A DNA stretch of 64,000 nucleotides from an uncultured virus (IMG/VR IMGVR_UViG_3300036823_000386) (IMGVR_UViG_3300036823_000386), one strand, 5' to 3'; counted from the stretch's first letter, positions 22,547-64,000 are shown. Translations and numbers: made by a program. The notes: generated by a model not told the origin, from the letters alone.

Positions 22547-22675
22547 ACCCAAACAGTTTGAAGCCCTCCGCCCATTGGGTGTGACGGGCTTCGAGGCGCC
22601 CAGGGTCGAACACAAACCACGGTCCGGGCGCTTTTGAGAAATTCAAAAAACCAAAATTCAAAAGTTAAAATAAAT

Positions 22676-23233
22676 ATGAAATTCAAAAATAAAAATTCCG
22701 GTGGGTTCACGTTGGTGGAAATTCTTTTGACGATCGCAATCATCGCTGTCCTCGCGCCCATCGCAATCCCGCGAGTGGCAAAAGCGGCGGACATCGTGGT
22801 GAGCGGCCGGGCATTGGTGGAAAGCGCCAACTCGGGTGTGGTCACCAACGGCGGCAGCCTGGGCGGACCGTTCTCCAATTCGACGGTGACCAGCACGGCG
22901 AGTTCGCCAATCCCGGTGATTCCGGGGGTGGACATTGCGCTTTATATCACGCAGGTCGCCGCGGGTTCGGGCACGGCACCAGTGACTTACGGTTTCAACT
23001 TTGAAGGTTTAACCAACACGGCGGCGTTCCGTGGATCGGGCACGAATTTCTGGACGACCACGCTGCCTTATACCGCGACGCTGGCCTTGAACGGCACGAC
23101 GCAGGTGACGGGCTGGTTTGTCATCAACCATACCAACCTCATTGGCGTGGACCAGATCCGCTACGACTCCTGCTCGACCACGCAAGCCAACAATATTTTG
23201 GACGTGGTGCGTTGGAAATACGTCACCCCGTAA
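22676..23233 (+). CDS. Protein with type IV prepilin N-terminal cleavage/methylation motif
   Basis: MKFKNKNSGG|FTLVEILLTIAIIAVLAPIAIP: G-1, F+1, E+5 and hydrophobic helix. Confidence 0.8.
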   Translation: MKFKNKNSGGFTLVEILLTIAIIAVLAPIAIPRVAKAADIVVSGRALVESANSGVVTNGGSLGGPFSNSTVTSTASSPIPVIPGVDIALYITQVAAGSGTAPVTYGFNFEGLTNTAAFRGSGTNFWTTTLPYTATLALNGTTQVTGWFVINHTNLIGVDQIRYDSCSTTQANNILDVVRWKYVTP

Positions 23234-31656: not shown

Positions 31657-32079
31657 ATGAAAGCGATTCCACTAAAATCCAAAGACGGCCAGATGGTTCA
31701 ATGCGAGCCGAGTGAGGCGACGCATGTCAGGTTGCATTTGCCGGGGCCGACGAGCCAATTAACATTGCCGGTCATCATCAAGGGAACGCGTGCGGGAACC
31801 GGTTGGTGGACGTGGAACGGAGACTGTGAGAAGCCCACCTTAAAACCAAGCGTGCTGCTCACATCCGGCCATTTTGCGAAAGAATTCGACGCATCAAAAG
31901 ATACATGCTGGTGCAAATATAATAAGGAGCATCCGAATGAAACGCCGGTCTTCCATTGCTTCCGCTGCCACACCTGGATCAACGACGGGATAGCCCAGTT
32001 CCTAGACGATTGTACTCACGCCTTCCGCGGGCAATCGGTCGAATTGCTGGAAGTCGAATTGCCGGTCGCGACGGCGTAA
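31657..32079 (+). CDS. DUF6527-like protein
   Basis: WTWNGDCEKPTLKPSVL...CHTWINDGIAQFLDDCTHAFRGQSV. Confidence 0.7.
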   Translation: MKAIPLKSKDGQMVQCEPSEATHVRLHLPGPTSQLTLPVIIKGTRAGTGWWTWNGDCEKPTLKPSVLLTSGHFAKEFDASKDTCWCKYNKEHPNETPVFHCFRCHTWINDGIAQFLDDCTHAFRGQSVELLEVELPVATA

Positions 32080-46519: not shown

Positions 46520-47296
46520 TTAAGCGGCTTGTTCCCAAAGCGGGAGGGAGGCATACAACGGATCCACGGGATGTTCGGCGACGTGGGTGGCGATGGCTTG
46601 CGTCTCTTCGATGGTTGGAGGCTGGCCTTGGGCTTGAGCCTCCGGCGATTTGATGCGCAGGGCCAGCGGCAGCCAGGGCATGATGTAGTGGATGTTGGAC
46701 CAGGCTTTCCACATTTCGTTGCTGATGGTGTTGCCGTGGATGACGCGGGTGGGAATGCCCCAAAGCGTGGTGTTGATGAAGCACATATCGCAGGCGATGG
46801 GGTTGATATCAATGGCGGTGACGCGCAGGCGGCGGAGCATCGCGGGATCGCAGACTTTGCCGATGGCGAGAATCATGGCGCCGGCGCCGCACGCGGGTTC
46901 GCAGATGGTGATATTTTGGTCGGCCGGAAACTTTTCCAGGTCGCTGAGCGTCATGCGGGCCATTAATTCGCAGATTGAAGGGGGCGTGTGGAATTCGCCA
47001 TTCCATTGCTGGCCTTTTTTGGAGAGGGCTTGTTCCATGTAATAGCCGCCGAGCAGGTCTTCAAACGGGTGGGCTTCCATGTCCATTACCAGCGCCCCAA
47101 GTGCGGTGGCAAAAATGGACATGTCATCTTTTTGCCACTGTTTCATTTCCTCGAAGTATTCGGGCTCACGGGTTTGCATGGCCAAGGCGCAGGCGGCAAA
47201 GCGAGTGAACGCGGAGAAAACTTTATGCGGGTTGTGCCGATGATCGAGGCTATCGAGCAGCTTGCGAAAGTCGGATGGCGGGGGTGATTTTTTCAT
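46520..47296 (-). CDS. N6-DNA-methylase-like protein (SAM-binding part only)
   Basis: GEFHTP, ICEPACGAGAM, AIDIN, HGNT; no NPPY/F motif seen. Confidence 0.75.
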   Translation of the reverse strand: MKKSPPPSDFRKLLDSLDHRHNPHKVFSAFTRFAACALAMQTREPEYFEEMKQWQKDDMSIFATALGALVMDMEAHPFEDLLGGYYMEQALSKKGQQWNGEFHTPPSICELMARMTLSDLEKFPADQNITICEPACGAGAMILAIGKVCDPAMLRRLRVTAIDINPIACDMCFINTTLWGIPTRVIHGNTISNEMWKAWSNIHYIMPWLPLALRIKSPEAQAQGQPPTIEETQAIATHVAEHPVDPLYASLPLWEQAA

Positions 47297-49530
47297 GCGG
47301 CTTGCTGCCAGAGCGGCAGATCGTCGAAGTCGGCAGGCGCCGACGAGCGATGGTCGGGGAGTACGATGGGCAAATCCGCGCTACCATTTGTCAGGAGCAT
47401 GGGCGTGGAAGGACATTCGAGAGGGATGATGGTTTCGGCGGCGGGTTCGTTATTCCAGGCGCGCATGGCGGCGGCGAGGCGCGTGCGGAGGGTGGGCCAT
47501 TCTTTGACGAGGTCCCGTTCGTCAATCAGTGACGACTGCATGTGGGCGAAGTCGGCGCGCGCGCTTTGGAGGAGTTCGGCGAGGTTGACTTCGTGGGGAT
47601 CTTCGCCGAGCAGGTGGCCGTCGAGGACGAGTTCGGTGGCGTCCTGCTTTTCCATGATGTTGCCTTCGAGACGGCGGTCAATCGTGCCATCGCACAGGAG
47701 GGAATACACATTGACGTCCTTGGTGGACGTGAGGCGGAGGATGCGCTTGATGGCCTGAAGAAATTTGTCCCACGCCCAGCTATAGGCGAGGAGGATGGCG
47801 TTGTTGCAGAGGTTGAAGCTGTGGCCTTCACTCATGGATTCGACGCCGGCGAGCATCACGGGGATCGCGCCCGCGGGACCGCGTTTGAACTGAGCGGCGG
47901 CGACTCCGCGTTTGGCGGGGCTGACGCGGCTATCCAGGACGACGTGACGGATGCCGGCTTCGTGGAGGCGCGCGCTAAGACAGTCGAGCGAATCATGGAA
48001 GGCGCTGAAGATGACGACTTGCTCGCCGCGCTCGAGGATCTGGGCGATGAGTGTGAGGGTGGCGGCAACTTTGGGAATGTAGGCGTGCGGACTGGCGGGC
48101 TGGCCGGGCGTGCGGTCCTTGTCGGACTCCGGGCGTTTTAGGAGCGCGCTGGCGGGATTGGCGGCGCAGATGCGCAGGGCCTGAAGGCGCGCGCCGATGG
48201 CTTCGCGGCCATTGATATCCAAATATTTTGCGTCAATGTGGAACTTGTAGGCGGCGGCTTGATGCAGGCCCATGGGAACGCGGATGACGTGGCGGACTTG
48301 TTTGACGACGTCTTCACCGCAGTCCTCAAAGCGGCGGCGGCAGATGAGGGGAGCCAGCAATTTCCAAAGGCGATGGATGTTGCAGACTTGCGGGGTGCGG
48401 CGGACGAAGCGGCCGCCTTTTTCCTGTTCACGGCTGAGGTTGCGTTCGGTGATGGAGAATTCGCCGGCGAAATCCTCCTGGCCGTCGCGACCGAAAGGAA
48501 AGCGCGGATGCGCGGCGTAGTGGCCGCCGGCGGCGGTGTGGGCGAGGAAGAAAATATCGGGCAAACGATTTTTGATGGGGGTGGCGGTCATGATCATGCG
48601 GTGGCGCGCATTGATCTGGCGGAAGCCGATGCCGATGTGGCTGGTGGCGCTTTTGATTTTCACGGCTTCATCGCCGACGAGAACGGCAAAGGTGTCGCAA
48701 CACAAATCGGCGAGGCTGGGGGAGTAAACGCATTTGACGGTGCGACCGGTGGTTTCGTCATCGCGAAAGCGGTCCACGTTTTGCGAGGCGGCCTCGTGTG
48801 CGTCCCGGGCGAGCCGGGCCTTGAGGAAGCGCTGTTGGGCGGGATCGAGATCGTTGAATTCCCTGGCGGGACGAGCGGCGATGAAGTTCTTGAGGTCGTA
48901 GTAAGCGTCATCGAGATCTTTGCAGCGTTGTTCGTTGCGGATATATTCTTTGCGCAGGGTGAGCCATTGGGCGTGGAGATGGGCGGCGGTTTCGTCGGGG
49001 GTGTTGGGACGGATCTCGAGCAGTTCGTAACATTTCGCGAGGCGGGTGACGCGGCTGGTGAAATAATCTTCGATTTCGCGCTCGGTGACGTTGAGCGCGG
49101 CGCAGGCGGCGGAGGGATCGGCGTGGTTGAACTTGGGGAAGGGGATGACGCCATTGCGCGTGAGTTCGGTGTAGGTGGTGAGATAATAGCCGGGCGGGAG
49201 GGTGCGGCGGCCGGTGCGGGGATCGAGCGAAGAGAGGCGCAGGAAAGTTTGTTGGCTGTCGAGCAGGGTGGGGCGGACTTTAAATTTATCGCGGCCTTCC
49301 TCGAGGATTTGCGTGTGCAGATCACCACTGGCGACGAGCAGGACGGGTTCCCTGGGGCAGACAGGTTTGACGGGAACGCCGGCGGCATCGCGGAGCAAGC
49401 CGACTTTGAGCAGGGGATAGACATAGGCCCAGATGCCTTTGCCGAGCCCGGCGTCCTGAGCGCAGATGGCGCCGGAGTCAGGGATGGCCATGCGGGAATA
49501 ATCTTCACGCTGGTAGTGGCGGAATTTCAT
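47293..49530 (-). CDS. SNF2-family helicase/ATPase with large insertion
   Basis: RHYQ, QDAGLGKG, GDEAVKIK, MTATPIKNR, SEGHSF, QAIKRILR. Confidence 0.8.
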   Translation of the reverse strand: MKFRHYQREDYSRMAIPDSGAICAQDAGLGKGIWAYVYPLLKVGLLRDAAGVPVKPVCPREPVLLVASGDLHTQILEEGRDKFKVRPTLLDSQQTFLRLSSLDPRTGRRTLPPGYYLTTYTELTRNGVIPFPKFNHADPSAACAALNVTEREIEDYFTSRVTRLAKCYELLEIRPNTPDETAAHLHAQWLTLRKEYIRNEQRCKDLDDAYYDLKNFIAARPAREFNDLDPAQQRFLKARLARDAHEAASQNVDRFRDDETTGRTVKCVYSPSLADLCCDTFAVLVGDEAVKIKSATSHIGIGFRQINARHRMIMTATPIKNRLPDIFFLAHTAAGGHYAAHPRFPFGRDGQEDFAGEFSITERNLSREQEKGGRFVRRTPQVCNIHRLWKLLAPLICRRRFEDCGEDVVKQVRHVIRVPMGLHQAAAYKFHIDAKYLDINGREAIGARLQALRICAANPASALLKRPESDKDRTPGQPASPHAYIPKVAATLTLIAQILERGEQVVIFSAFHDSLDCLSARLHEAGIRHVVLDSRVSPAKRGVAAAQFKRGPAGAIPVMLAGVESMSEGHSFNLCNNAILLAYSWAWDKFLQAIKRILRLTSTKDVNVYSLLCDGTIDRRLEGNIMEKQDATELVLDGHLLGEDPHEVNLAELLQSARADFAHMQSSLIDERDLVKEWPTLRTRLAAAMRAWNNEPAAETIIPLECPSTPMLLTNGSADLPIVLPDHRSSAPADFDDLPLWQQAA

Positions 49531-50009: not shown

Positions 50010-51749
50010 TCACACCGTCAGTTGTTCGATTTCATCGAGGAGTTTGAGGTTGTTTTGGTAGGCTTCGGGATTCACGCGGGCGACGTCGGGGACATCGGGA
50101 ATGAGGAAATGGCTGACGAGTTCCTGGAGGGTAAAGTCAATCGGACAATCGGAGGGCTCGCCGCTGGTGGCGAGTTCATCGCCGCGCAAGGGTTTGTCGG
50201 ACTGATTGGCGAGGCTGAGCTTCACGGTGGCGTCGCGCAAACGGCCTTCCATGAAGACGCGTTCGACGCCGTGCTCGTCGGTGATAAAAAACGCAAGTTC
50301 CTGTCCGTTCCATTGCACGTCGTCGAGCAGGCCGATGAGATTGGTTTTTGTGCCGCTGCGCTGGACCTGGATCGTGGCGCTGCGGAGTTTGTATTGGCGG
50401 TCGGCGAGGAACACGGCGGGAGAATTATTTTGGCCGGGCGTGAGGCGCAAGGTGTGTTCGCAGAGGACGTGGTCCTGTTCGTCGAGGTAGCCAAGGCGCT
50501 GGATGGGGGAAAGTTCGTAGAGCGGTGCGCGGCAAATGCTGTATTGCTCGATGGCCTCGCGCACAGCGGATTGCAACTTGGGATCCACGCGCCAGATGTT
50601 GCCGAAGGCGGCTTGTTCCAACGCGCGGCGATGGGCGCGCTGGATGACGAGTTCCATCGGGTGTTTGCCGTTGAGTTCAAAAAGCGCGTTGGCTTGTTCG
50701 GCGAGGACGCGCGAACTGGCGGTATCGAAGAGCGAAACATTGGTGGCGATGAGGCCGTTGGCGGTGAGCCAGAGATTGTAGCGGATGAAATTGCCGGTGC
50801 GCTCGGTGGGATAGAGGCGTTCCCATTCGTCACGCACGGCGATCCATTTGGACGTAGTGATTTCGACGCGGTGATTGTACGATTTTATTTCGTGGCCGTC
50901 GCGGAGCTGAAGGCGGTCGCGCTGCAAGGTTTCGCAAACGAGGGTCGCGGAGTGCAGGTCGGCCAATGGCGCCGGCGGGATGGAGCGCAGGAGCGGGGAG
51001 CTGGACGGCGGCAGGCCGCTGCTGTGGTCGCGCGCGAAGTAGATGACGCCGGTCTGAAATGCGGACTGCGGGTCGGCAAGCGCCGACGGGCGATTCTGAG
51101 AGGTGCTGGTGCAGATGTTTCCCTCGATGGCAAGGTGAGCCCAGATGTGTTCGGCAAGGGCGGCGTGCGGGGCGTTGGGGCTGAGGATGAGGCGTTGGAG
51201 GGTGGATTCGTTGCCGATGAGCAGGCCTTCACCGCAACGGCTCAAGAGGTCGAGCGCGATGCAGAGAGTGGCAACCGTGCTGTCTATGGTATCGCGGCCG
51301 CAACGGCCATCGTGATTGGCGAAGGCGGCGCGCACGGCAGGGAGTTCGCTGGTGGTGAGCAATTTCAGTCGCGAGCGGTAGAGATGCAAATCCCAGGGAG
51401 GATTGAGGACAATGCAATCGGCGCAAAAATCAATGGCGCGCGCGAGGGGATGAAGCAGGGCAAGATCGCCGGTGATGCGTTGGAGGGAAATGGCGCCGCT
51501 GGTATCTTCGCACGGGTCAATGTCGCAACCGAGGAGATGATTGGTGCTGCCGCGGGCGGCGCCGCGCAGGAGATGGCCGCTGCCGCAATTCAGGTCGAGC
51601 AGGACAGGGCGAAAACGCGGGAGCGGAATGGCGAGAGCTTGCGCCCACGGAACCGGCGTGAAGTATTGGGCTTGGCCTTTGTCGCCGGCGTTCGAGGCGC
51701 TCTCCAGGAATTGCTGATAGATGGCGGGGTTGATGTTGGTTTTTTGCAT
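50010..51749 (-). CDS. Amino-(N6A/N4C) DNA methyltransferase with C-terminal extension
   Basis: AQYFTP, LDLNCGSG, GCDID, VLNPPW. Confidence 0.75.
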   Translation of the reverse strand: MQKTNINPAIYQQFLESASNAGDKGQAQYFTPVPWAQALAIPLPRFRPVLLDLNCGSGHLLRGAARGSTNHLLGCDIDPCEDTSGAISLQRITGDLALLHPLARAIDFCADCIVLNPPWDLHLYRSRLKLLTTSELPAVRAAFANHDGRCGRDTIDSTVATLCIALDLLSRCGEGLLIGNESTLQRLILSPNAPHAALAEHIWAHLAIEGNICTSTSQNRPSALADPQSAFQTGVIYFARDHSSGLPPSSSPLLRSIPPAPLADLHSATLVCETLQRDRLQLRDGHEIKSYNHRVEITTSKWIAVRDEWERLYPTERTGNFIRYNLWLTANGLIATNVSLFDTASSRVLAEQANALFELNGKHPMELVIQRAHRRALEQAAFGNIWRVDPKLQSAVREAIEQYSICRAPLYELSPIQRLGYLDEQDHVLCEHTLRLTPGQNNSPAVFLADRQYKLRSATIQVQRSGTKTNLIGLLDDVQWNGQELAFFITDEHGVERVFMEGRLRDATVKLSLANQSDKPLRGDELATSGEPSDCPIDFTLQELVSHFLIPDVPDVARVNPEAYQNNLKLLDEIEQLTV

Positions 51750-54095: not shown

Positions 54096-54438
54096 AATTG
54101 TCGAGGGGGAGTTCTTTTTCGGGCCGGACGATGGGTGGCAACCACCAGCCATCGGTGCGTTGTTCAAAGGACATTTTGCGGAGCCATGGTTCACTTTGCT
54201 CGGTGCCTTGCTGGGTGATAAAAGTCGAATCGGGATAGCCGCCGCGAAGGGCGAGAAACATTTTTGTGAGATATCCCCGCCGCCGCATTGTCGGATGAAC
54301 GTAGCAATGGAGGATTTCAATATAATTTCCCATTACTATGCGGTAGTAGAGATAGCCGATCGGCGCGGCCCATTCTGGCAGCACCGCAAAGACCGCGCTC
54401 GTACCCGGGATGACGGATTGAGTAAAGAATGGTTTCAT
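54085..54438 (-). CDS. GNAT acetyltransferase
   Basis: YVHPTMRRRGY acetyl-CoA motif A; WLRKMSF. Confidence 0.7.
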   Translation of the reverse strand: MKPFFTQSVIPGTSAVFAVLPEWAAPIGYLYYRIVMGNYIEILHCYVHPTMRRRGYLTKMFLALRGGYPDSTFITQQGTEQSEPWLRKMSFEQRTDGWWLPPIVRPEKELPLDNYEI

Positions 54439-55427
54439 TTCGGCCAGGCGGAGATTTTGGACCAGTGGATTTCGAACCACGATTTGTCCCAGTGACCGGT
54501 CGCGAGCGATTTATCAGGCCAGAGGTGCAGGACGTTGTCGGGAATGCCGTGATACACTTGCGCGAGGGATTGAAATGCGCCGAGTTGCTCTTGGGCGTAG
54601 CGCTTCCACAATTCGCGCGTGGCGAAGACTTCGGTATTTATTTTCGCGCCGAGGCTTTGAGCATGGGCCTCGATGCGTTTCACGTTGTCGGCGCGGATGT
54701 TGATCGGCTCCATGAAGATGGTCACGGGGTCGAGTTCTTTGACGGCTTTCAGCGTGCGGGACATATCCACCATGTCGCAATCGGGATAGACGGGTGCGAC
54801 GGCGACGAAAACGTGAAGGCCAAGTTCCTTGGCGGCGCGGAGCGTTGCGAGGCGTTGAGTTGGCGCGGGGGCTTTGGGTTCGTAAATTTTGGCGAGGCGA
54901 TTGTCCAGCGTGGGAATCGACATGCCGAACAGGAGGCGTTTGCCAAAGCATTTGAACAGGTCAAAGTCTTCGCGCGCGAGGGGCGAGCGGGTGAGGATGC
55001 GGACGTTGAGCGTGGATCCATCGAGGATTTCGCGGAGGGCTTCGCGCACGAGCGTGCGGCGCTGCGCCTGCATGTCTTTGGGGAGGACTTGATACGGGTC
55101 GGTGGTGGTGCAGAGCATGACGGCGCGATTGCCGTCGGGCGCGAGCTGGTCCACCGGGGTTTCCTGGGCCTTGTGGAGCGAGTTGAGGAAAACCGATTTA
55201 TCCCACGTGCGCGGGAAGACGTATTCGCCCCATTGCGCGTCGGGATCGGTGACGCCGTAGGTTTCGAGTTTGCCGGCCATGCGGTTGGTGGAGACTTCGG
55301 GCACGTAGCAAAAACGGCAGGCATGCTCGCAACCGACGGCGATGTTGTAGGACCAGTTCGAGAGCGACTTGAACTTGAAGTTGTTCGGCTCGATGGTCGC
55401 GGGGCGGTTCCAGATTTTGGTGATCAT
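54435..55427 (-). CDS. Radical SAM protein (spore-photoproduct-lyase-like)
   Basis: GCEHACRFCY; TTTDPYQ; ILTRSPL; YEPKAP. Confidence 0.85.
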   Translation of the reverse strand: MITKIWNRPATIEPNNFKFKSLSNWSYNIAVGCEHACRFCYVPEVSTNRMAGKLETYGVTDPDAQWGEYVFPRTWDKSVFLNSLHKAQETPVDQLAPDGNRAVMLCTTTDPYQVLPKDMQAQRRTLVREALREILDGSTLNVRILTRSPLAREDFDLFKCFGKRLLFGMSIPTLDNRLAKIYEPKAPAPTQRLATLRAAKELGLHVFVAVAPVYPDCDMVDMSRTLKAVKELDPVTIFMEPINIRADNVKRIEAHAQSLGAKINTEVFATRELWKRYAQEQLGAFQSLAQVYHGIPDNVLHLWPDKSLATGHWDKSWFEIHWSKISAWPK

Positions 55428-55849
55428 TTGAGGTTGGTGGTGCAGCCGAGGCGGGTGAGGGCGGCGGCGAATTCCTCGGTAACGGATTCGCCCACGACGA
55501 GGAGGAGGACAACTTTGAGATTTTTGAACGTGAGACTGGTGTAGGACCAAGTCTGGTGATGTTCGTGCATGGCTTCGAAAATCCTGCGCACGGGAGTCTC
55601 CAGGGTGATCAGGAAGCGCTCGCTTTGATTCAGTGGAAGTTTCGCAACGTGACTGTGCAGGAATGGACCAACTTCGCGGAGCGCCTTGGAACCGATCATG
55701 ACGACCGCGACGCCGGTGGCCTTAGACTCGAATGGCAGAGCGCGACGGACAAGGCTGACACGGTCGAGACCGTTGGCGGTCGCGACATCCACAAGCAGCG
55801 GGACGGTGGGTTCGATATGGGATTGGTCAACGAAATCGGTTGGTTTCAT
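55424..55849 (-). CDS. Hypothetical protein
   Basis: Coupled in - operon. Confidence 0.5.
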   Translation of the reverse strand: MKPTDFVDQSHIEPTVPLLVDVATANGLDRVSLVRRALPFESKATGVAVVMIGSKALREVGPFLHSHVAKLPLNQSERFLITLETPVRRIFEAMHEHHQTWSYTSLTFKNLKVVLLLVVGESVTEEFAAALTRLGCTTNLK

Positions 55850-55852
55850 AAA

Positions 55853-56176
55853 TCAGGATTCAAATTTGCAGCGGCGGGAATTTGGAATTTTGTCGAGGCC
55901 GGCTTCGACCCACATGGTTTCGCGGTCGGTCCAATCGCGCGGATGGGCGATGGCGTGGTAGGCGAGTTCGCGCGCCTGTGGTTGCATGGATTTTACAACG
56001 GTGCCGAAAGCGACCGCGACTTGCGGCCGCCGATCGTACGCGTAAAGTTCAGCGATTTGGACGGCGGCCTGGAGCGCCCGGGCATCCGTGCCGGTGAGGA
56101 CGCCAAGGCAGTTTTTACCAAGGTTAGCGCGCAGCCATGGAAAGACGGTGGCGGCATAAGGTTTGGAGGTGCTCAT
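55853..56176 (-). CDS. Hypothetical protein
   Basis: ATG 56176, 4 nt after ThiF stop. Confidence 0.55.
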   Translation of the reverse strand: MSTSKPYAATVFPWLRANLGKNCLGVLTGTDARALQAAVQIAELYAYDRRPQVAVAFGTVVKSMQPQARELAYHAIAHPRDWTDRETMWVEAGLDKIPNSRRCKFES

Positions 56177-56180
56177 AGTT

Positions 56181-56948
56181 TTATGCGGGTTTTCCGCCAA
56201 AGATTTCAGCCAGCGTTTTGCCGGGTGGTGGTTGAGGGACGAGAATGGGGCGGACGTTGCCGGTTTCGAGGTTGATGAAATAGCCTTGATGATAGGTTTC
56301 ACCATGGCGCAGGAAGGACCAGAGGAGTTGCAAAGCCCACGTGGCCACGCTTTGGTTGATGAACAGGTCCTGGCGTTCCAATGCTGCGGCGAGGCTGCAA
56401 CTGGGCGTGGTGTTGTCCTCCTTGACTTTGCCGCGGTTGAGTTCGGGAAAGATTTCGAGGACGGTGCGCGGGCGCGTGTGATCGCCTTTGTTGTGGTACC
56501 ATTTGGGCGCGCCGAGGATGACCTGGCCGGTACGATCGCGATTGCCTAAATCGAGCCAGTAGTGAAAGTGGTTGCGGCTGATCGCGCGGCGGCTGGTGAT
56601 GGTATCCACGCAGCCGATGACGATGTGCGGCTGCAAAGTTCCGCCGTCCGACATCCTGGGCACGGCTGTCCAGCCGAGACCATAGTAACAATTCAGCCGA
56701 TGAATCAGGACGGAAGCTTTGTTTTGTCCGATGTCCGAAGGGCTGAAAAGCTGGCGGCCGACATTGGCTTCGGAAACAGAATCGCCATCAAACGCGATGA
56801 CTTTGAGGCCGGGATGGCCGAGGGATTGAAGGGCGATGTGCATGCGGGCAAGGCCATTTAGCATTTGCGAGCCGTTGCCTCCGCAACCGACCAAGTCAAT
56901 GCTCACCTGCGCGCCGACCAAATCTTTGTGGAGTTTATGAGGAATCAT
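56181..56948 (-). CDS. PRTRC system ThiF/E1-like enzyme
   Basis: LVGCGGNGS, DGDSVSEANVGRQ, IGCVD, YWLDLGN, TPSCSLAAALERQDLFIN. Confidence 0.9.
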   Translation of the reverse strand: MIPHKLHKDLVGAQVSIDLVGCGGNGSQMLNGLARMHIALQSLGHPGLKVIAFDGDSVSEANVGRQLFSPSDIGQNKASVLIHRLNCYYGLGWTAVPRMSDGGTLQPHIVIGCVDTITSRRAISRNHFHYWLDLGNRDRTGQVILGAPKWYHNKGDHTRPRTVLEIFPELNRGKVKEDNTTPSCSLAAALERQDLFINQSVATWALQLLWSFLRHGETYHQGYFINLETGNVRPILVPQPPPGKTLAEIFGGKPA

Positions 56949-57682
56949 AGATTGGTTTGATGCTTGAGCCATGAACCGAGCTTGGTGCTGTTGTAGGGCT
57001 GGAGATATTTGCGCGGGAAAACTTTCGCGGTCTGCATTTCACGCCAAAGACCGAGGTGTGAATCAGGATGGCGGGTGAGTTTGTGGCCGTAGTTGGAATG
57101 GGAAAAGGCGGAGTCGAAAAATCCGGCTTCGAATTTTTCGATGAGCGACGGTGTGGCAATGTCCGGAAAGTGGGCGGACCCTTTGCAGAGCGAGCCGTTG
57201 GCATCGCAATTATAATAGGGAGCCACGTAAAGCGGAGTGTCAGCGACAGGACGTTTGTTTTCTGCGAGCGCAAAGACGCGGAGGCCGCGGTTTGCCGCGA
57301 AAAAGAGTGGCGGATGCATGACGAATCGTCCGTTGAGTTTGCGCAATCCTTCGTTGACGTCCTTATCGCTCCCCGATGGCTTGAACCAGATGCGGCGGCG
57401 GCGCGCCGGGCACCACCACGTCATCTGCGAAAGGCTAATGCTCAGGATGCGCTCGGGGAGAAGATGGTTCTCGAGCTTTCGACCGAGGGATTCGGCCAGT
57501 GCTTCCACACCGGCAACGGTGACCGGCTGGCCAGCTTTGAGAACGGGCCGCCCATGCACAAGATCCACTTCATGGATAGAAGCGGCGGCGGCGCTGGAAG
57601 AACCCTGCTCCTCGTAAATGAGAACGGCGTGGGCAAGGTGAAAGTTGCGCTCGGCATTTCCGAATTTGGCTTCAACGCGCAT
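56945..57682 (-). CDS. PRTRC system protein B (prokaryotic E2 family D)
   Basis: WWCPA, LRVFAL...RP...LYVAPYYN...GSLCKGS, FFDSAFSH. Confidence 0.85.
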   Translation of the reverse strand: MRVEAKFGNAERNFHLAHAVLIYEEQGSSSAAAASIHEVDLVHGRPVLKAGQPVTVAGVEALAESLGRKLENHLLPERILSISLSQMTWWCPARRRRIWFKPSGSDKDVNEGLRKLNGRFVMHPPLFFAANRGLRVFALAENKRPVADTPLYVAPYYNCDANGSLCKGSAHFPDIATPSLIEKFEAGFFDSAFSHSNYGHKLTRHPDSHLGLWREMQTAKVFPRKYLQPYNSTKLGSWLKHQTNL

Positions 57683-58811
57683 AGTTGTCCTTTCCGATCA
57701 ATTTGATGAGATTTTCAGTGAGTTGCATGATGTGGAGATAATTGCGGAGGCGAACGACGGCGCGTTCGATGGATGGTTTGTCCCACCAGGCGAATGCGGC
57801 GTTGATTTCCATGGACGATTCGCCGGCTTCAAACATTGGGTTTATGACGTCGTCCCAGATTTGACACATGGGATCGCCCCCGCCCTGATTGTCGTATTTG
57901 TTCCAGTTCAAAAGGAACGGGCAAACTTCCCATTCCAAATGTTCAAAGCGATCGAAGTCGGATGAAAGCTTCCATGACTTGGAGCGGCGGCTTAGGGTTT
58001 CAAGTCCTTTCATCAGCGCGCGTGTGGCAATGACGATATTTTTGTGGCGCGGGTGCTTGATGCGCTGGGCGAGAAGCGCACGGTAGGAAAATGGTTTGAT
58101 AGCACCGCTCCCAGCCCAGCCGGGAATGGCTTTATCAAACTCCGCCTTTGTGTAAATGTTATAGTCTTTACGTATGTCGGCATCGCTGGTTCCAGGCGGA
58201 TAGTTACCACGGATCTCGTCCATAAAATCGGACTCGTCCATTTCTCCGCGCCAATAGGCAGATTGACACCAGCCATAAGCGCTACGCGGTGTCATGCCCC
58301 GGCAGGAATTGTGGAGACCTTCGTCGAGGGTACTAAGAACCGTTTGACCGAGCCGGGGCAGCGCAGCTTCCAATTCGCGTAGTGTAGGGCCGATGAGTTT
58401 GATGTAGGTTGACTCCATGTCGAGAGTCAGAAAAATGACGCCGACATTCTCCGGTGCATTGTTTTTCCGATAATCGAAATCATGGAATGACCCGAGTTCA
58501 GAGGCATCGTCGGTAAAATGCAGTTTGAGTTTGACGAGCGGATCCGGACGCGCGGTATCGCAAAGTTCGGCGAGCGCGCGGGCGCAAGAATTCCCAATGT
58601 GGCCGGTCCAGTGGCGGTCCTGCAGGACGTTTGCATCCGCTAGCCCTTCGGCAAACTGGGCGAGGCTTTGTTTGCTGCCTTCAACTTTGAAGCTGGGCAA
58701 GCAGGCAGAAAGGTCCGGGAGGGCTAAAGCGGTGGCGCAAGGAGCGATGACGGCATGGCGAAACGGAATCCGTGAGTCGTCCGGGCGAGTTTGTGTAGAG
58801 CTTTGCTGCAT
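57672..58811 (-). CDS. PRTRC system protein F-like
   Basis: LEAALPRLGQTVL...TP...YWRGEMDE; between proteins C and B. Confidence 0.7.
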   Translation of the reverse strand: MQQSSTQTRPDDSRIPFRHAVIAPCATALALPDLSACLPSFKVEGSKQSLAQFAEGLADANVLQDRHWTGHIGNSCARALAELCDTARPDPLVKLKLHFTDDASELGSFHDFDYRKNNAPENVGVIFLTLDMESTYIKLIGPTLRELEAALPRLGQTVLSTLDEGLHNSCRGMTPRSAYGWCQSAYWRGEMDESDFMDEIRGNYPPGTSDADIRKDYNIYTKAEFDKAIPGWAGSGAIKPFSYRALLAQRIKHPRHKNIVIATRALMKGLETLSRRSKSWKLSSDFDRFEHLEWEVCPFLLNWNKYDNQGGGDPMCQIWDDVINPMFEAGESSMEINAAFAWWDKPSIERAVVRLRNYLHIMQLTENLIKLIGKDNYAR

Positions 58812-58977
58812 ACCGTGAATTTCGGATTGTTGATGGGAAGGGGAGGAATGGTTTCTCCGCCTTGCTCCTGGGCGGCGATGGCAATTTTCTCGTGAAGGGA
58901 AAGCGCGGGTGATTTGACTCGCGCGCGACCGGAGGTTTTCCGGCGCGCGCGCGGCGACGATTTACGGCGCGGCATGA

Positions 58978-59187
58978 TTATCCCTTGGTGCCGGCGGAGA
59001 CGATGAAGGTGTAAGTCTGGACATTTCCTTTCATCACCGGTCCGTCAATCGCGGCGGTGGCGAGTTCGGGGTGGTCGGTGCTTAGGATGTCGCGGGCTTG
59101 CTCGACGCTGATGACCGGGTTGGGGTCCGCGAGTTCAGTTCCTTTATAAACGAATTTCCGAGCGATGTTGGAGGCTTCGAGGGGCAT
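58978..59187 (-). CDS. PRTRC system protein C (prokaryotic ubiquitin-like)
   Basis: RKFVYKG.ELADP...HPELATA.IDGP...AGTKG-stop. Confidence 0.9.
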   Translation of the reverse strand: MPLEASNIARKFVYKGTELADPNPVISVEQARDILSTDHPELATAAIDGPVMKGNVQTYTFIVSAGTKG

Positions 59188-59225
59188 AGATTATTTTTCT
59201 TATTGGGTTGTGGTTTGAAAATGGA

Positions 59226-59723
59226 TTAGATGCCGAGGTCGCTGGTGGCTGCTTCGGCTGATTTATCTTTGGGAGCAGGTTTTGGCTGTTCCTTTTTCTC
59301 TGCGGGTTCGTCCTCGCCTTCGCCTTCGCCTTCGCCTTCGCCTTCGCCTTCGCCTTCGCCTTCAGCGGATGCATCGGACGCGGCGGCGGTGGTCGCGGCG
59401 GCTTTAGGCTTGGATTTAGGGGCGAGCTTGGAGGTCTTGGCGTGCTGGTGCGCGGCCTCGACGTCGGCGATGGTGTTGCGCAGGCCGACGGTGGACACCT
59501 GGAAGCGTTCGAGCGTGGCGGCGAATTCCGGGGAATCCAATTCCTCGACCGTGCCGACCATGGTGAGCGGCTGGCTCAGGGCTTTGCGATCTTCACCGTG
59601 CTGGCCGTCCATGGTGAACAGCTTGGGGGTGACGTTCACGCGGAACTGGGTTTCGTTTTCGCGCGTGATGTGGAGGACGAGGGTATCGCCCTTTTTCAAT
59701 ATTGGAGTGAGTTCTTTGAACAT
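59226..59723 (-). CDS. PRTRC system protein E
   Basis: MFKELTP...VNVTPK...ALSQPLTMVGTVEELD; low-complexity tail. Confidence 0.85.
   Translation of the reverse strand: MFKELTPILKKGDTLVLHITRENETQFRVNVTPKLFTMDGQHGEDRKALSQPLTMVGTVEELDSPEFAATLERFQVSTVGLRNTIADVEAAHQHAKTSKLAPKSKPKAAATTAAASDASAEGEGEGEGEGEGEGEGEDEPAEKKEQPKPAPKDKSAEAATSDLGI
59314..59361 (-). repeat. Hexanucleotide tandem repeat (8 x TCGCCT on +) encoding (EG)8
   Basis: Directly visible perfect repeat. Confidence 0.9.
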
Positions 59724-59749
59724 GATTTATTGGCGGTTAGGGAATTGAG

Positions 59750-60910
59750 TTATTTGCTTTCAGATTTTTTTTCGGCGGGTTTCTCTTCCGACTTTTTGCT
59801 GGGCGGGGTGATGGCGGCGGTGAGGGAAAGCCATTGACGGCTGGCGACTTTGATGACGGCGGGCTTGAATTCTCCGATGCAATAGAGGCGCACTTCATCG
59901 TCATCCACGGCCGATAGCGCCTCGATCAGAAAGGGGAGATTGAAATTGACGGTGAGCGATTTGGTTTCGGGAATGAGCAAGGATTCGACGGCTTCACCGG
60001 GAATGTCTTTCCCGCGCCCGCGGACGGTGAGATTTTGTTTTTCGAATTCGAGGGTGCAAAGGTCCGTCACGAAGTTGACGCGCTGGAGCGTGCTTAACAG
60101 CAGGTGGCGATTGATGGGGATGCCCTCGCCCAGTTCCTTGGGGATGATGTTTTCGTAAGGCGGATATTTGCCTTCCATGAGTTTGCTGCTCAAGAGGGTT
60201 TCGCCGATTTGAAAGTGCGCGGCGTTTTTGCCGATGCCGGCGGTGACGGTAAGAGCGGTTTCATTTTCCCCCGGTTTTTTGGTGGAGAGCAGGCGAAGCA
60301 ATTCCTTGACGGCCTTTTGCGGGAGAATGAAATCGGCTTTTGCGCCGGCGACCCCCTCGGGCAACGGAACGGACTCGACGGCGAGGCGTTTGCCATCGCA
60401 CGCGGCGACGGTGAGGCTGCCGTTGAGCCGCACGAGAGAACCCTGGAGCATGGCGCGCGCTTCATCCGCGCCCTGGCAGTAAGCGGTGGCGAGCAAGAGG
60501 CTGTGGAAGATGTGCTGGGTGAGTTGGAATTCGCGCGAATCATCGAGCTTGGGTACCGGCGGCATGTCCTTGGCGGGCATGGAACCGAGTTTGTAGCGCG
60601 ACTGGCCGCACTCGATTTTCAAATCGTGCGTGAGTTCAATCAGTTCGACGGGTTGATCGCCGCTGAAGCTGTTGACGAGGTTGTAGAGCATGGCGGCGTT
60701 GACGGTGCAGGAGCCGGTTTCCTCAACGTCCACGGGGATGCGTGTGCTGATGGAGATGTCGTTATCCGTGGCGCGCAGTTCCAGGCTTTTGCCCTGGGCG
60801 CGCAAACAGACGTTGGCAAGGATGGGCAGCGAACCATTTTTGGTGGTGGCGCTGCGGACGATGTTCAGGGCTTTGGTCAGCTCCTGACGCGGGAGACTTA
60901 TTTTCATCAT
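59750..60910 (-). CDS. dnaN: DNA polymerase III beta sliding clamp
   Basis: LPILANV, LRATD, ACDGKRLA, SKLMEGKYPPY, FNLPFLIEAL. Confidence 0.9.
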   Translation of the reverse strand: MMKISLPRQELTKALNIVRSATTKNGSLPILANVCLRAQGKSLELRATDNDISISTRIPVDVEETGSCTVNAAMLYNLVNSFSGDQPVELIELTHDLKIECGQSRYKLGSMPAKDMPPVPKLDDSREFQLTQHIFHSLLLATAYCQGADEARAMLQGSLVRLNGSLTVAACDGKRLAVESVPLPEGVAGAKADFILPQKAVKELLRLLSTKKPGENETALTVTAGIGKNAAHFQIGETLLSSKLMEGKYPPYENIIPKELGEGIPINRHLLLSTLQRVNFVTDLCTLEFEKQNLTVRGRGKDIPGEAVESLLIPETKSLTVNFNLPFLIEALSAVDDDEVRLYCIGEFKPAVIKVASRQWLSLTAAITPPSKKSEEKPAEKKSESK

Positions 60911-61081
60911 ATGCGGATTGCGGTTGGGGTGGGAGATTTCCGCCACACGGCGAAAAGTTTTGGGCTAGACGGGTACTGAAAAGAAAGAAAACGGGGTTAG
61001 CGCGGCGCGCTGGACGTGTGTCCATCGGGTGTCTATAAAACACACGACGAACACACAAGGCAAGCTTTATTTCTAGAAATC

Positions 61082-61111
61082 AAAAAGGCCCGCACGAACG
61101 GCGTGCGGGCC
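61082..61111 (-). terminator. Rho-independent terminator (- strand)
   Basis: GGCCCGCACG-AACGG-CGTGCGGGCC stem with AAAAA on the + 5' side. Confidence 0.7.
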
Positions 61112-61158
61112 GGAGGCAGTTACTGGAAGAGTGTCAGTGCGGAATGCGGAGTGCGGAA

Positions 61159-61434
61159 TTATGCGCGGGAAAACCAGATTACACCGTCGCCTTTAGTTTC
61201 GGCAATGAACCCAGGAACGTAATCAGGTTTTTGCATTTCGTGATCCGGGAACCGCTGTTCGAATTTTTTGATTGCTGCCTTGAGCAAGGAAATTTTTTGC
61301 CGTGGAGTTAGCAACCGTTTTTCATCCATCACGCGGATGTTAAAGGTATCGCCCTTAAATTGCCCCCAATCTTCCAGGAGATAATTTACTTTAATGTAGG
61401 CGGCTCCCGTGGTTATTGCTTTTGGTTTTGCCAT
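61159..61434 (-). CDS. Hypothetical protein
   Basis: MAKPKAITTG...; AT-rich leader. Confidence 0.5.
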   Translation of the reverse strand: MAKPKAITTGAAYIKVNYLLEDWGQFKGDTFNIRVMDEKRLLTPRQKISLLKAAIKKFEQRFPDHEMQKPDYVPGFIAETKGDGVIWFSRA

Positions 61435-61445
61435 AATCGTTTTTT

Positions 61446-61658
61446 TTAATTGCGGCCGTCGTGGGAGATGTGCCAATCAGTCACGGACTGACGGGCTTCT
61501 TCGAGTTCGCGGCGGGTGCGTTGGAGGGATTCGTGATCGGGTTCACCGCTGCCTTCGCCACGTTTGATGATTTGTTCAAGCTGGCGTTCGAGTTGGACGA
61601 CGTTCTGCCGCAGTTGGGCGATGGATGGCGCATCAGACATGCGGCAGAACATAATCAT
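61446..61658 (-). CDS. Small coiled-coil protein
   Basis: IAQLRQNVVQLERQLEQ. Confidence 0.5.
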   Translation of the reverse strand: MIMFCRMSDAPSIAQLRQNVVQLERQLEQIIKRGEGSGEPDHESLQRTRRELEEARQSVTDWHISHDGRN

Positions 61659-62279
61659 TTAAGCGGCGGCCTGCAAGGCGCTTTCGGCATCAATGAGCGC
61701 GGCACGCACATTGCCGGCGGCGCCAAAGGCGATGTGGGTGATGGTGCGCTCGTCGGTTAAAAACTTGCGCAGCAGGCCTTGGACTTCGTGTTCCAGCGGG
61801 GGAGCCATTTCATAAATTTTGAAGCGGGTTTGAAAACGCTTTTTGAATTCGTCCACCTTGCAGTTGCTGGTGCAGATGACGGCGGCGCCATCGGGCAGAT
61901 CGTCGAGCAGGGTGAGGAACCGAACCTGGGCCACGGCGGGAATCATGTCGGCTTCCTCGATCCAAATGATGCGGTATGCGCCGTAGATATCGCAATAGTG
62001 CAAGTCGCGGGCGATTTCTTCCACGGTCTCGAGTTTGATTTGAGTGCCGTTATATTTTTTGTAGGACCATTTATCGGAAGGGTTCGCGCCGAGCAGGGTG
62101 ATCAAATAGCGCGACACGGCACTTTTGCCGATGCCGGGCTCGCCATTGAACAGGACTTTGATGGGCGCGTTGGCGTGGGCTTTGGCATCGGTGGCGACGC
62201 GGCCGAGTTGCAGGGAAACAGTTTTGGCATCGCCGATGAAATCGGCGGGCGACTTGGGGATATATCGGGTGGGAAGCAT
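61659..62279 (-). CDS. Clamp-loader/RarA-clade AAA+ ATPase
   Basis: RYIPKSPADFIG, GEPGIGKS, IEEAD, CTSN, FQTRF, GNVRAAL. Confidence 0.75.
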   Translation of the reverse strand: MLPTRYIPKSPADFIGDAKTVSLQLGRVATDAKAHANAPIKVLFNGEPGIGKSAVSRYLITLLGANPSDKWSYKKYNGTQIKLETVEEIARDLHYCDIYGAYRIIWIEEADMIPAVAQVRFLTLLDDLPDGAAVICTSNCKVDEFKKRFQTRFKIYEMAPPLEHEVQGLLRKFLTDERTITHIAFGAAGNVRAALIDAESALQAAA

Positions 62280-62306
62280 AATTCAATGCGGAGTGTGGAA
62301 TTAAAA

Positions 62307-63134
62307 TCAGGCGGCGACGGCTACGCGAGTGGCGAGCCAGTCTTTTACAGTTTTGGAGTTGATGATTTTGGCGACGTTGCCGGATTGCCATTTGCCGGTG
62401 TTGAAGCGGGTTTCGCCTTTGTATTTGATGATGTCGCCCCGGCCATGTTTGGTGGGGACGTTGTGGGCATTGAGGTTTTTCGCGATGCTGTGATAGCCCC
62501 AGCCGGCGTTGCGAAGCTGGACCATGTAGAGGATCCATTTTTGCTCTTCGAGATTGTCCACGAGCTTGCGGATGTTGACGGTGTGTTTGCCTTTGGGGCG
62601 AGCTTCGCCGGTTTCGACGGCGTCCCAGCCATACGGCACAGTGCCGCACAGTTCGCCTTTGGAGCGTTTTTCCTCGAAGCCGGCGGCGATGCGTTCGTGG
62701 ATGCGGGCGAGTTCAAGCTGGGCAAAAATGGCGGCGATCTGAAGGAAGGCCATGCCCATGGGCGTGGTGGTATCGCAACCGATATCGAGGAACACCATGC
62801 GGACCTTGAGCGAGTGAAACAGCTTCACGGTTTGGGAAACGTCAATGGTATCGCGACCGAGCCGGTCCACCTTCGGGATGATCATGGTGACCGAACGATT
62901 GGCGGCGAGCGCTTCGTGAGCGACGGCGACGAGACGCTTGCCTTCCTTGCGTTCGGCAAAGACGGAAGCGCCGCTGGCGTTCGCTTCCGCGAAGATGATG
63001 GGTTCGGGCAACTGATACGCGGTGCTGTACCGGCGGATGGTTTCGCTTTGGGCGTCCACCGAAAGTTCCTGACGATCGGTGGACACGCGGATATAGCCCA
63101 GGCAAATGGCGGCGGGCGGAGAATTAGTTGTCAT
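62307..63134 (-). CDS. Serine recombinase (resolvase plus recombinase domain)
   Basis: GYIRVSTDRQ...S..AQ, KVDRLGR, ERI, VPYGW, IAKNLN. Confidence 0.9.
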   Translation of the reverse strand: MTTNSPPAAICLGYIRVSTDRQELSVDAQSETIRRYSTAYQLPEPIIFAEANASGASVFAERKEGKRLVAVAHEALAANRSVTMIIPKVDRLGRDTIDVSQTVKLFHSLKVRMVFLDIGCDTTTPMGMAFLQIAAIFAQLELARIHERIAAGFEEKRSKGELCGTVPYGWDAVETGEARPKGKHTVNIRKLVDNLEEQKWILYMVQLRNAGWGYHSIAKNLNAHNVPTKHGRGDIIKYKGETRFNTGKWQSGNVAKIINSKTVKDWLATRVAVAA

Positions 63135-63197
63135 ACAATGAAGGATTGAACTGCGCAGAGTCGTGAGGGCACGACGGCCCATTGGGGGACCGATTGG

Positions 63198-63653
63198 CTA
63201 TGCGTTGCGGAGGAAACGGGTGCGCCAGGCGGGTAGTTGGCCGGGTGCAGGCGGATTGATGGGAATGGATTTGGCGACCTGGCTGGCGGGTTGTTCGTCG
63301 AAATTTACTTTCACGACGTTGGGCACTGGCGCTGGCCCGGGTGGATTGCCGGAGATGAGTTGTTCGGCGAATTTGCGGGTGACGTCGTTGCGGCGGGCAT
63401 ACCAATATTTTAATTTGCGATGCCAATGCCATTGGTGCGCGGCGGGAAGTTCGGCGGTGCGATGGAAGGCGGCGAGGGTGGGTTCATCGGGCCGCGTGGG
63501 GAAACGCAGTTCGAGGCCGTCCTTGGCGTTGTTCTCGGTGAGCGTAGGAGAGTGCGAGATGACGGGCGGCCGTGGAATATCGCCCTTGGGCAATGGCTGA
63601 GGGCGTTGGGGTTTGACGGGCGCGTTGGGGCGCAGAGGATTGAAGCGTGGCAT
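63198..63653 (-). CDS. Hypothetical protein with polyvalent-protein-like small domain
   Basis: GLELRFPTRPDE...WHWHRKLKYWYA. Confidence 0.55.
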   Translation of the reverse strand: MPRFNPLRPNAPVKPQRPQPLPKGDIPRPPVISHSPTLTENNAKDGLELRFPTRPDEPTLAAFHRTAELPAAHQWHWHRKLKYWYARRNDVTRKFAEQLISGNPPGPAPVPNVVKVNFDEQPASQVAKSIPINPPAPGQLPAWRTRFLRNA

Positions 63654-63661
63654 GATTTTAT

Positions 63662-64000
63662 TTATTTGGTTGAGGGGGAAATGTAACCGAGTTCGCGAAG
63701 GGAACAGTGGCGGCCGGCGCCGATGATGATGTGGTCTTCGACTTCGATTTTAAGCAGTTGACCGGCGCGCACCATGTCCCGGGTGACTTTGATATCTCCT
63801 TCCGACGGACCTGGATCGCCACTGGGATGATTGTGGCAGAGAATAATGGCGGCAGCGCTGGTCATGATGGCGACGCGAAAGACTTCGCGCGCGTGGACGA
63901 GCAAGGTGTCCATGGTTCCCGTAGCGACGAGGTAATGGCCTTTGATGCGGCGGCGGGTATTCAAGATCAGGACGACGAAACATTCGACTTCAGGATTGTA
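63662..64000 (-). CDS. radC: RadC-like JAB/MPN domain protein (5'-truncated by window)
   Basis: ECFVVLILNT...VHAREVFR...HNHPSGDPGPSEGD...DHIII; frame open to 64000. Confidence 0.9.
   Translation of the reverse strand, partial: YNPEVECFVVLILNTRRRIKGHYLVATGTMDTLLVHAREVFRVAIMTSAAAIILCHNHPSGDPGPSEGDIKVTRDMVRAGQLLKIEVEDHIIIGAGRHCSLRELGYISPSTK

Follow-up and report, generated by a model that had tools for sequence, protein, structure and literature searches.

A dnaN-led PRTRC cassette without protein A and ParB in an integrated, prophage-like element, and its possible link to the sliding clamp

Background

The PRTRC genes (ParB-related, ThiF-related cassette) form a mobile-element system that combines a ubiquitin-like protein (Ubl) with proteins of the E1 and E2 types, and the families of the canonical system are collected in NCBIfam as TIGR03734-03742. 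The survey of Iyer, Burroughs and Aravind, 2006 (PMC1779556), lists the canonical cassette as operon type 6d and classes it with the E2 and JAB conjugation systems. In the annotated records of Aromatoleum EbN1 plasmid 1, pMOL28 and the Polaromonas plasmid pPNAP01 the genes follow the order ParB-E-C-F-B-A-ThiF, and PRTRC proteins are also annotated in Ralstonia phage Dina; the family as such is already known. Although the cassette has been catalogued since 2006 and sits on plasmids, integrative and conjugative elements (ICEs) and phages, neither a substrate nor a role is known for it, and no mechanistic paper on PRTRC was among the matches listed in our literature search. Here we describe a PRTRC locus found in a stretch of 64,000 nucleotides assigned to an uncultured virus (IMG/VR IMGVR_UViG_3300036823_000386), hereafter the window, in which the gene directly before the cassette, dnaN, encodes a beta sliding clamp.

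In eukaryotes the sliding clamp PCNA is ubiquitylated and SUMOylated, and it acts as a platform. A dnaN-PRTRC operon gives a hypothesis that can be taken to the bench, i.e. Ubl tagging at a bacterial replication clamp, which, if true, would give prokaryotes a parallel to PCNA modification and add a new level at which the replication of mobile elements is controlled. Neither a dnaN-led variant devoid of JAB and ParB nor an association of PRTRC with the clamp was found in the searchable literature, outside which lie the subscription journals and about 1.7 million PMC articles.

In this work we analyzed the gene content of this locus, its conservation in related loci and in plasmids, and the sequence features of the clamp and of protein E. 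From these analyses we conclude that the locus is very probably a dnaN-led PRTRC operon that lacks both the JAB protein and ParB.

Results

The PRTRC cassette and its catalytic residues

The window corresponds to positions 36547-100546 of a contig of the host genome (G000:C27:36547-100546, reversed), and all the cassette genes are on its minus strand. Calling of open reading frames (ORFs) together with family matches recovered in place every minus-strand gene that an earlier reading, made from the sequence alone, had listed, and the scores of dnaN and of the five PRTRC proteins all exceed the curated cut-offs of NCBIfam. In the direction of transcription, dnaN (59750..60946; TIGR00663, 201.7 bits, cut-off 137.65) is followed by PRTRC_E (59226..59723; TIGR03741, 55.9, cut-off 37.95), by PRTRC_C, a Ubl of 69 residues (58978..59187; TIGR03738, 81.4, cut-off 45.95, and PF14454), by PRTRC_F (57672..58811; TIGR03742, 61.9, cut-off 58.4), by the E2-like PRTRC_B of the Prok-E2_D type (56945..57682; TIGR03737, 178.9, cut-off 131.45), and by PRTRC_ThiF, of the E1 type (56181..56972; TIGR03736, 273.1, cut-off 144.75). 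The dnaN stop and the start of E are 26 nt apart (59724-59749), exactly the gap that had been read from the sequence, and the ORFs of B and ThiF share 28 nt.

A terminator-like hairpin with a T-run (61077..61111, minus strand; hairpin at 61111-61087) sits between dnaN and the last of the small ORFs upstream of it; its 10-bp stem has nine G-C pairs and is followed by TTTTTGATTT. It is the strongest site of this kind in the region, where terminator-like sites taken together occur at chance level (13 found, 13.0 expected), and it agrees with the terminator that had been claimed before dnaN. Given the position of this hairpin just 5' of dnaN, dnaN-E-C-F-B-ThiF reads as one transcription unit, apart from the genes for an AAA+ ATPase, a recombinase and a RadC-like protein that lie farther upstream.

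The residues predicted to carry out the conjugation chemistry, i.e. the Gly loop and Cys192 of the E1, Cys166 of the E2 and the terminal Gly of the Ubl, are intact in the translations, and the motifs singled out previously (a Ubl ending in TKG, GSLCKG in B and TPSCS in ThiF) are all present. The Ubl ends in ...AGTKG followed by the stop codon; in nearly all loci of the survey described below it likewise ends in G-x-K-G and a stop, an extension past the Gly being found only in some loci that carry protein A, such as that of Dina. All 27 of the 27 sequences compared have Cys166 of B, and at least 90% keep His195. In ThiF, Cys192 is conserved in 89 of 90 sequences, and the Gly loop, R73, K85 and D123 are also conserved.

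PRTRC_F was modeled by AlphaFold2 (AF2) as a mixed alpha/beta, mostly helical protein (predicted template-modeling score, pTM, 0.79). A Foldseek search with this model gave no match at an E-value of 0.001 or lower, its top rows having template-modeling scores of at most 0.2, and the highest Z reached by VIA-align in its wide mode, against small ribosome hibernation factors, was 5.8, a value inside the noise range stated for the tool; neither search points to a clear fold for F.

Protein A and ParB are missing

No match to protein A (TIGR03735) was obtained at an E-value of 0.01 or lower anywhere in the host genome, which is 96% complete, and no Prok-JAB match passes its cut-off. The 28-nt overlap between B and ThiF leaves no room for this gene, so protein A is cleanly absent and not degraded. 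As for PRTRC ParB (TIGR03734), the genome has none above cut-off and the contig of the window has none at all, the best score, 121 bits, being on contig C34. That match is a 358-aa ParB-like ORF (G000:C34:94916-95455) that fits the N-terminal third of the ParB model and lies on a contig without PRTRC genes. The absence of ParB and protein A from the cluster had been noted beforehand, with the reservation that they could lie just beyond the window; both are also missing from contig and genome. In the 12 kb past the end of the window, an SOS-response associated peptidase (SRAP) and unknown ORFs are followed by a tyrosine integrase (C27:24271-25416) and, after it, by host genes, with no ParB and no protein A among them, so neither is just outside.

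The element clamp and its C-terminal tail

The host genome carries dnaN twice: the host copy on contig C23 (336.8 bits) and the element copy, which is a second and divergent one (about 201.5-201.7 bits). Translation of the element copy from its likely start at 60907 gives a protein of 385 residues with all three beta-clamp domains (PF00712, PF02767 and PF02768), which matches 54 clamps of the PDB at an E-value of 1e-10 or lower (best 7e-37). The protein ends in a Lys-rich tail of 19 residues, PPSKKSEEKPAEKKSESK, found in the translation just as the sequence-only reading had it. Tails rich in Lys, Pro and Ala, of 17-70 residues, are present in 9/9 full-length clamps of the PRTRC clade to which the window belongs, with a number of lysines that goes from 3 to 11 and positions that are not conserved. 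The host clamp (...MPMRL) and the clamp of L028, a surveyed locus of another lineage (...MPTRL), have no such tail, and the clamps of PRTRC plasmids have ordinary C-termini without it.

Conservation of the link between dnaN and PRTRC

A survey of the neighborhood had been suggested along with the sequence-only reading. Ours includes 128 loci (labeled L plus a number) with relatives of protein B, of which 40 come from genomes, 8 from viral contigs and 80 from metagenomes. The loci were gathered with a 12-sequence alignment, a 27-sequence alignment being too diverse for pattern scans, and their six-frame ORFs were scanned with the window proteins, with reference proteins and with a dnaN profile; a scan of the viral contigs with ThiF as single query found nothing.

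The dnaN profile matches 12 of the 128 loci, 11 of which are relatives of the window (L012, L014, L060, L061, L064, L066-L069, L072 and L073) that have dnaN directly upstream of E. The linkage is thus conserved: within the clade of the window, dnaN stands right before E in 11 of the 12 loci that show this position, and the gap between them is 4-47 nt in the nine loci where both gene ends are visible. In a tree of protein B these loci belong to an 18-row clade with an SH-aLRT (approximate likelihood ratio test) support of 98, which is formed by 12 dnaN rows (the window included), five rows that are too short to tell, and L062. Inside the clade, identity falls to about 42-45% for B and is 32-50% for dnaN. 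On the upstream side these loci retain the AAA+ gene, in many cases together with the recombinase, and on the downstream side an SNF2 helicase. The nearest named records of the window locus are metagenome-assembled genomes (MAGs) of Verrucomicrobiota. L062 is the sole clade member without dnaN before E; in it (L062:476-2137) a UvrC-like N-terminal frame reads stop-free into PRTRC E, which could mean a fusion or mark a junction of integration.

In other clades the slot before E is occupied by ParB in 10 loci, all of them proteobacterial and all with protein A, by an SNF2 helicase in 18 loci, mostly from Acidobacteria, by DUF3150 in five and by the single-stranded DNA-binding protein SSB in three. 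L028, one of these three SSB loci, with the order Rad52-dnaN-x-SSB-E, represents a lineage separate from the clade of the window.

PRTRC is present on 354 plasmid records of PLSDB. Among eight PRTRC plasmids sampled across genera, a small sample from incomplete gene tables, four have a dnaN annotated no more than 10 kb away from the cassette, and all four also have ParB. The order is dnaN-ParB-E in a Xanthomonas plasmid and ParB-dnaN-E in an Aeromonas plasmid; in Pseudomonas pPUV-18, which has no protein A, dnaN is 3.8 kb downstream, and in a Polaromonas plasmid it is 9.7 kb downstream of the cassette. With the query used, a dnaN-like match is found in only 330 of 72,556 plasmid records (<0.5%). 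Because ParB and a nearby dnaN occur together on these four plasmids, the clamp appears as a recurrent partner of the cassette and not as a simple substitute for ParB.

Two other features of plasmid cassettes were observed. A gene of the PAPS-reductase family lies a few genes after the PRTRC ThiF in plasmids of Aromatoleum, Vibrio and Shewanella (L142, L151 and L156), and BRCT-domain proteins are encoded in or near the cassettes of the Vibrio and Shewanella plasmids.

The C-terminal tail of protein E

In the AF2 model of E, residues 1-99 are folded and residues 100-165 are disordered; the disordered tail is Lys-rich, then acidic, and ends in ...SDLGI. Foldseek gave no match for this model in the PDB at an E-value of 0.001 or lower, and only PRTRC_E clusters in the Atlas. 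To characterize the tails we took 150 diverse representatives out of 1099 matches at an E-value of 0.001 or lower, and analyzed the 138 that have at least 125 residues. E tails are of low complexity, with a short hydrophobic peptide at or close to the C-terminus. The pattern L[FW] is present in 80 of the 138 tails (9.6 +/- 2.8 after shuffling), [SDTNAPG][LI][FWLI] in the last six residues in 48 (shuffled, 1.6), and Q-x-x-hydrophobic-hydrophobic in 16 (shuffled, 4.0). In the clade of the window, 10 of 12 E proteins have [S/D/P]-L-(G/D)-[I/L/M] within the last five residues, and the Aeromonas E-like protein, which is likewise encoded after a dnaN, ends in ...SSLGI.

Two papers (PMC4549789; PMC9690074) give QLSLF as a beta-clamp-binding consensus, and the ...SDLGI end in the disordered tail of E fits the form QL[SD]LF only in part. 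In the SNF2-type loci, the helicase encoded directly before E ends in ...EQLSLFADLAGVA. This QLSLF is conserved about eight residues from the C-terminus of the helicase in L029, L031, L040, L084, L086 and other loci.

Genes around the cassette and nature of the element

Upstream of the hairpin, all on the minus strand, there are several genes. Two small overlapping ORFs of 70 aa (61446-61658) and 105 aa (61159-61476), together 61159..61658, had not been listed before and match no family above cut-off. They are preceded by the gene for a small AAA+ ATPase of 206 aa (61659..62279) that is clamp-loader-like, every one of its matches being under the family cut-off (NCBIfam delta', E-value 2e-7; PHROG clamp loader, 1.2e-11; PDB small subunit of RFC, 8e-4), and whose size leaves little room for a C-terminal collar domain; it is syntenic in L012, L014, L060, L061, L064, L067 and L073. 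A serine recombinase (62307..63182; PF00239, 103 bits) is syntenic in L012, L060, L061 and L064, and the 151-aa protein encoded next to it (63198..63653), without a family match and also absent from the previous gene list, has phmmer matches that adjoin the recombinase in L060 and L061. The last gene encodes a RadC-like JAB protein (63662..64000; PF04002, 122 bits), of which the window holds the C-terminal 112 aa; the full ORF, of 180 aa, extends past the end of the window (C27:36343-36885), and its translation shows an HNHPSG...SEGD stretch, i.e. an intact metal motif of the JAB type. RadC is found at three places in the genome, the third split into two matches, and the copy described here is probably outside the cassette.

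On the other side, a small protein of no recognized family is encoded by an ORF (55853..56305, minus) that overlaps the end of ThiF, and its true start is probably internal; its phmmer matches are right after ThiF in L067 and L069, and farther downstream in L064. A PA0069/Rv2578c-type radical SAM protein is encoded three genes downstream of ThiF (54435-55550, minus), with a homologue after the cassette in L064. Farther downstream, a 579-aa protein (50010-51749, minus) has a PADLOC 'mad2' match (E-value 7.6e-9) and adjoins an SNF2 helicase and an N6-methylase, a neighborhood that may be a DNA-modification module. The SNF2 helicase encoded at 47293-49530 (minus), downstream of the cassette, ends in ...PADFDDLPLWQQAA, which resembles the acidic C-terminal tip of SSB in L028 (...PEFDDLPL) and L045 (...DDLDDVPF) and, judging from this resemblance, may be a mimic of the SSB tail.

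The element is integrated and prophage-like. The SRAP gene (G000:C27:35573-36295; PF02586, 138 bits) is directly upstream of RadC, and the host genes past the integrase include a sigma-70 factor, a trypsin-like peptidase and a transporter of the MFS family. Besides a tape-measure protein of 1690 aa (PF10145 and PHROG tape-measure families), the element encodes two SNF2 helicases and methyltransferases, along with many ORFs without a known function. Neither Pfam nor PHROGs recognized a capsid, portal or terminase gene in positions 1-47 kb of the window or in C27:100.5-120 kb, so the evidence goes as far as 'prophage-like'; the phage origin assumed in the sequence-only reading is backed by the integrase and the tape-measure protein, on which the label rests, and not by capsid, portal or terminase genes in the parts scanned. 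PRTRC_B was not found in any of 60 relatives, of which one shares the genus, eight the family and 51 the order; this fits a sporadic mobile cassette.

Other features of the window are a 140-aa ORF among the structural genes with a weak DUF6527 match (31657-32079, plus; E-value 1.9e-5, 24.9 bits with a cut-off of 23.6), a protein with a prepilin-type N-terminal methylation motif in the structural region (22634-23233, plus; PF07963 and PHROG pilin), and a GC skew that is positive in all the 2-kb bins from 1 to 64000, despite the switch in gene orientation near 44 kb.

Discussion

A cassette headed by its own clamp

The best explanation for this locus is a JAB-less, ParB-less variant of PRTRC that is part of the replication/recombination module of the element and is headed by the element's own clamp. 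That the cassette is also linked in function to the clamp is a tentative proposal, to which we give slightly less than an even chance; the clamp-motif-like peptides of E and the canonical QLSLF of the neighboring helicase point in this direction. We infer binding, direction of transfer and target from the protein families and from the anatomy of the locus, as follows. ThiF would adenylate the C-terminal Gly of the Ubl and take the Ubl onto Cys192, from where it would pass to Cys166 of protein B and then to a lysine of the target. Since the terminal Gly of the Ubl is free from the outset, its maturation would need no JAB protease, which explains how a cassette without JAB can work. The system would act at the DNA-loaded clamp, on which E, either a docking adaptor or itself a substrate, would dock its C-terminal ...SDLGI and bring the conjugation machinery. 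The candidate acceptors are the Lys-rich tail of the clamp, the Lys-rich linker of E, or proteins bound to the clamp, and the system would likely serve to control replication or repair of the element itself.

In its widest form, this idea would make PRTRC in general the mobile-element counterpart of PCNA ubiquitylation: E would dock on the DNA-loaded clamp, the E1-E2 pair would tag the clamp or a clamp-bound factor (in the clade of the window the likely site being the clamp tail), and the tag would switch the partners recruited by the clamp, through which it would control the replication, repair or copy number of elements such as phages, plasmids and ICEs. We consider this generalization speculative and unlikely to hold as a whole.

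Several observations weigh against a functional link with the clamp. From the sequence relationships within the clade, the dnaN-E junction can be explained by a single origin followed by inheritance of the gene order, and many loci have ParB, SNF2, DUF3150 or SSB before E and no dnaN. The viewed stretch of the other four of the eight sampled plasmids shows no dnaN either. The patterns in the E tails were defined after inspecting the sequences; the strict QLxLF is present in 0/138 tails, most of them lack the consensus Gln, and the motif of the clade itself has no aromatic residue. Given this weak fit, the peptide of E could instead have F, B, ThiF, SSB, ParB or some other protein as its partner. 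In turn, the Lys/Ala/Pro-rich tails of the clade clamps may equally be plain DNA-binding tails, and they are absent from the plasmid clamps encoded beside PRTRC.

An alternative view is that dnaN and PRTRC are neighbors only: a self-contained Ubl system, with targets unrelated to the clamp (host defense proteins, competing phages or its own regulators), would have been placed in an early replication module and kept there by inherited gene order. The single origin of the junction in the clade of the window, the different genes found before E in other clades and the half of the sampled plasmids without dnaN nearby agree with it, as does the fact that the known bacterial Ubl systems, Bil and CBASS Cap2, act in defense. 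In this respect, ThiF gives weak matches to the E1-E2 and BilD models among the component models of Bil, CBASS Cap2 and 6A-MBL in PADLOC (best E-value 3.3e-7), which gave none for E, C, F or B. However, PADLOC found no system-level match for the cassette, and dnaN recurs next to PRTRC in five separate settings or more, although dnaN-like matches are so rare among plasmid records; the canonical QLSLF of the SNF2 partner and the conserved terminal peptide of E also speak against mere vicinity. We regard this account as possible, if on the unlikely side.

A narrower version of the clamp hypothesis, put forward in the sequence-only reading, is that the clade clamp took over the DNA-sliding role of ParB and is itself the substrate, tagged on its Lys-rich tail. 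Its structural part stands, since dnaN does fill the slot of ParB directly before E in a clade devoid of ParB and protein A, and the tail, missing in the host and L028 clamps, is present in every full-length clamp of the clade. The replacement itself does not agree with the plasmids of Xanthomonas, Aeromonas, Pseudomonas and Polaromonas, where ParB and dnaN coexist and the clamp is tail-less, and the variable number and position of the tail lysines also count against this version; we consider it improbable.

The same reading suggested that the upstream RadC-type JAB protein could be the deconjugase of the cassette in place of protein A. The intact metal motif, and the presence of RadC genes near 6 of the 10 PRTRC loci of the ParB type, are in its favor, but the gene is about 2.7 kb upstream, separated from dnaN by three genes, two small ORFs and the terminator-like site, and in L060 and L061 no RadC was found in the 3.4 kb that precede the homologous block. 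Moreover, near proteobacterial PRTRC genes RadC accompanies protein A and lies on the opposite strand, the Ubl needs no processing, and the genome has further RadC copies; this suggestion is very improbable. Finally, a sulfur-carrier pair of the ThiS/MoaD type, in which the Ubl and E1 would serve cofactor or thio-modification chemistry and not tagging, is hardly credible: a ThiF-family E1 with a beta-grasp protein ending in Gly, and the PAPS-reductase family genes downstream of ThiF in three plasmids, would fit it, but the E2-like protein, with its invariant Cys, is never missing, the window locus has no rhodanese or sulfur-metabolism genes, and the operon classification of Iyer et al. (PMC1779556) places this type with the E2 and JAB conjugation systems.

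Comparison with known systems

The locus of the window, read as a PRTRC variant headed by a clamp gene, shares with the canonical cassette the proteins E, C, F, B and ThiF, above cut-offs and in the same order, the conserved terminal Gly of the Ubl and the Cys residues of E2 and E1, and its location on a mobile element. It differs in that the JAB protein A and ParB are missing, dnaN occupies the slot of ParB, the clamp has a Lys-rich tail, and the host is outside the Proteobacteria, with the nearest loci in Verrucomicrobiota MAGs. Ralstonia phage Dina (NC_055026) and Burkholderia phage BgVeeders33 also carry the cassette in a temperate phage genome with the order E-C-F-B-...-ThiF; in contrast to the window, Dina keeps protein A (E-C-F-B-A-ThiF), its Ubl extends past the Gly, and there is no dnaN in the stretch of Dina that was viewed. 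In Pseudomonas aeruginosa pPUV-18, Aeromonas pK524-KPC and Xanthomonas pJS749-3.1, an element dnaN likewise lies 0-4 kb from the cassette; the first two lack protein A, and the ...SSLGI of the E-like protein of pK524-KPC is close to the ...SDLGI of the window, whereas these three plasmids retain ParB and their clamps end normally. With respect to the modification of PCNA and to the bacterial systems Bil and CBASS-Cap2, homology is limited to the folds of E1, E2 and Ubl, and no E3 was recognized at the window locus; what the window locus has in common with them is the E1-E2-Ubl chemistry and, in the case of PCNA, a sliding clamp as the platform.

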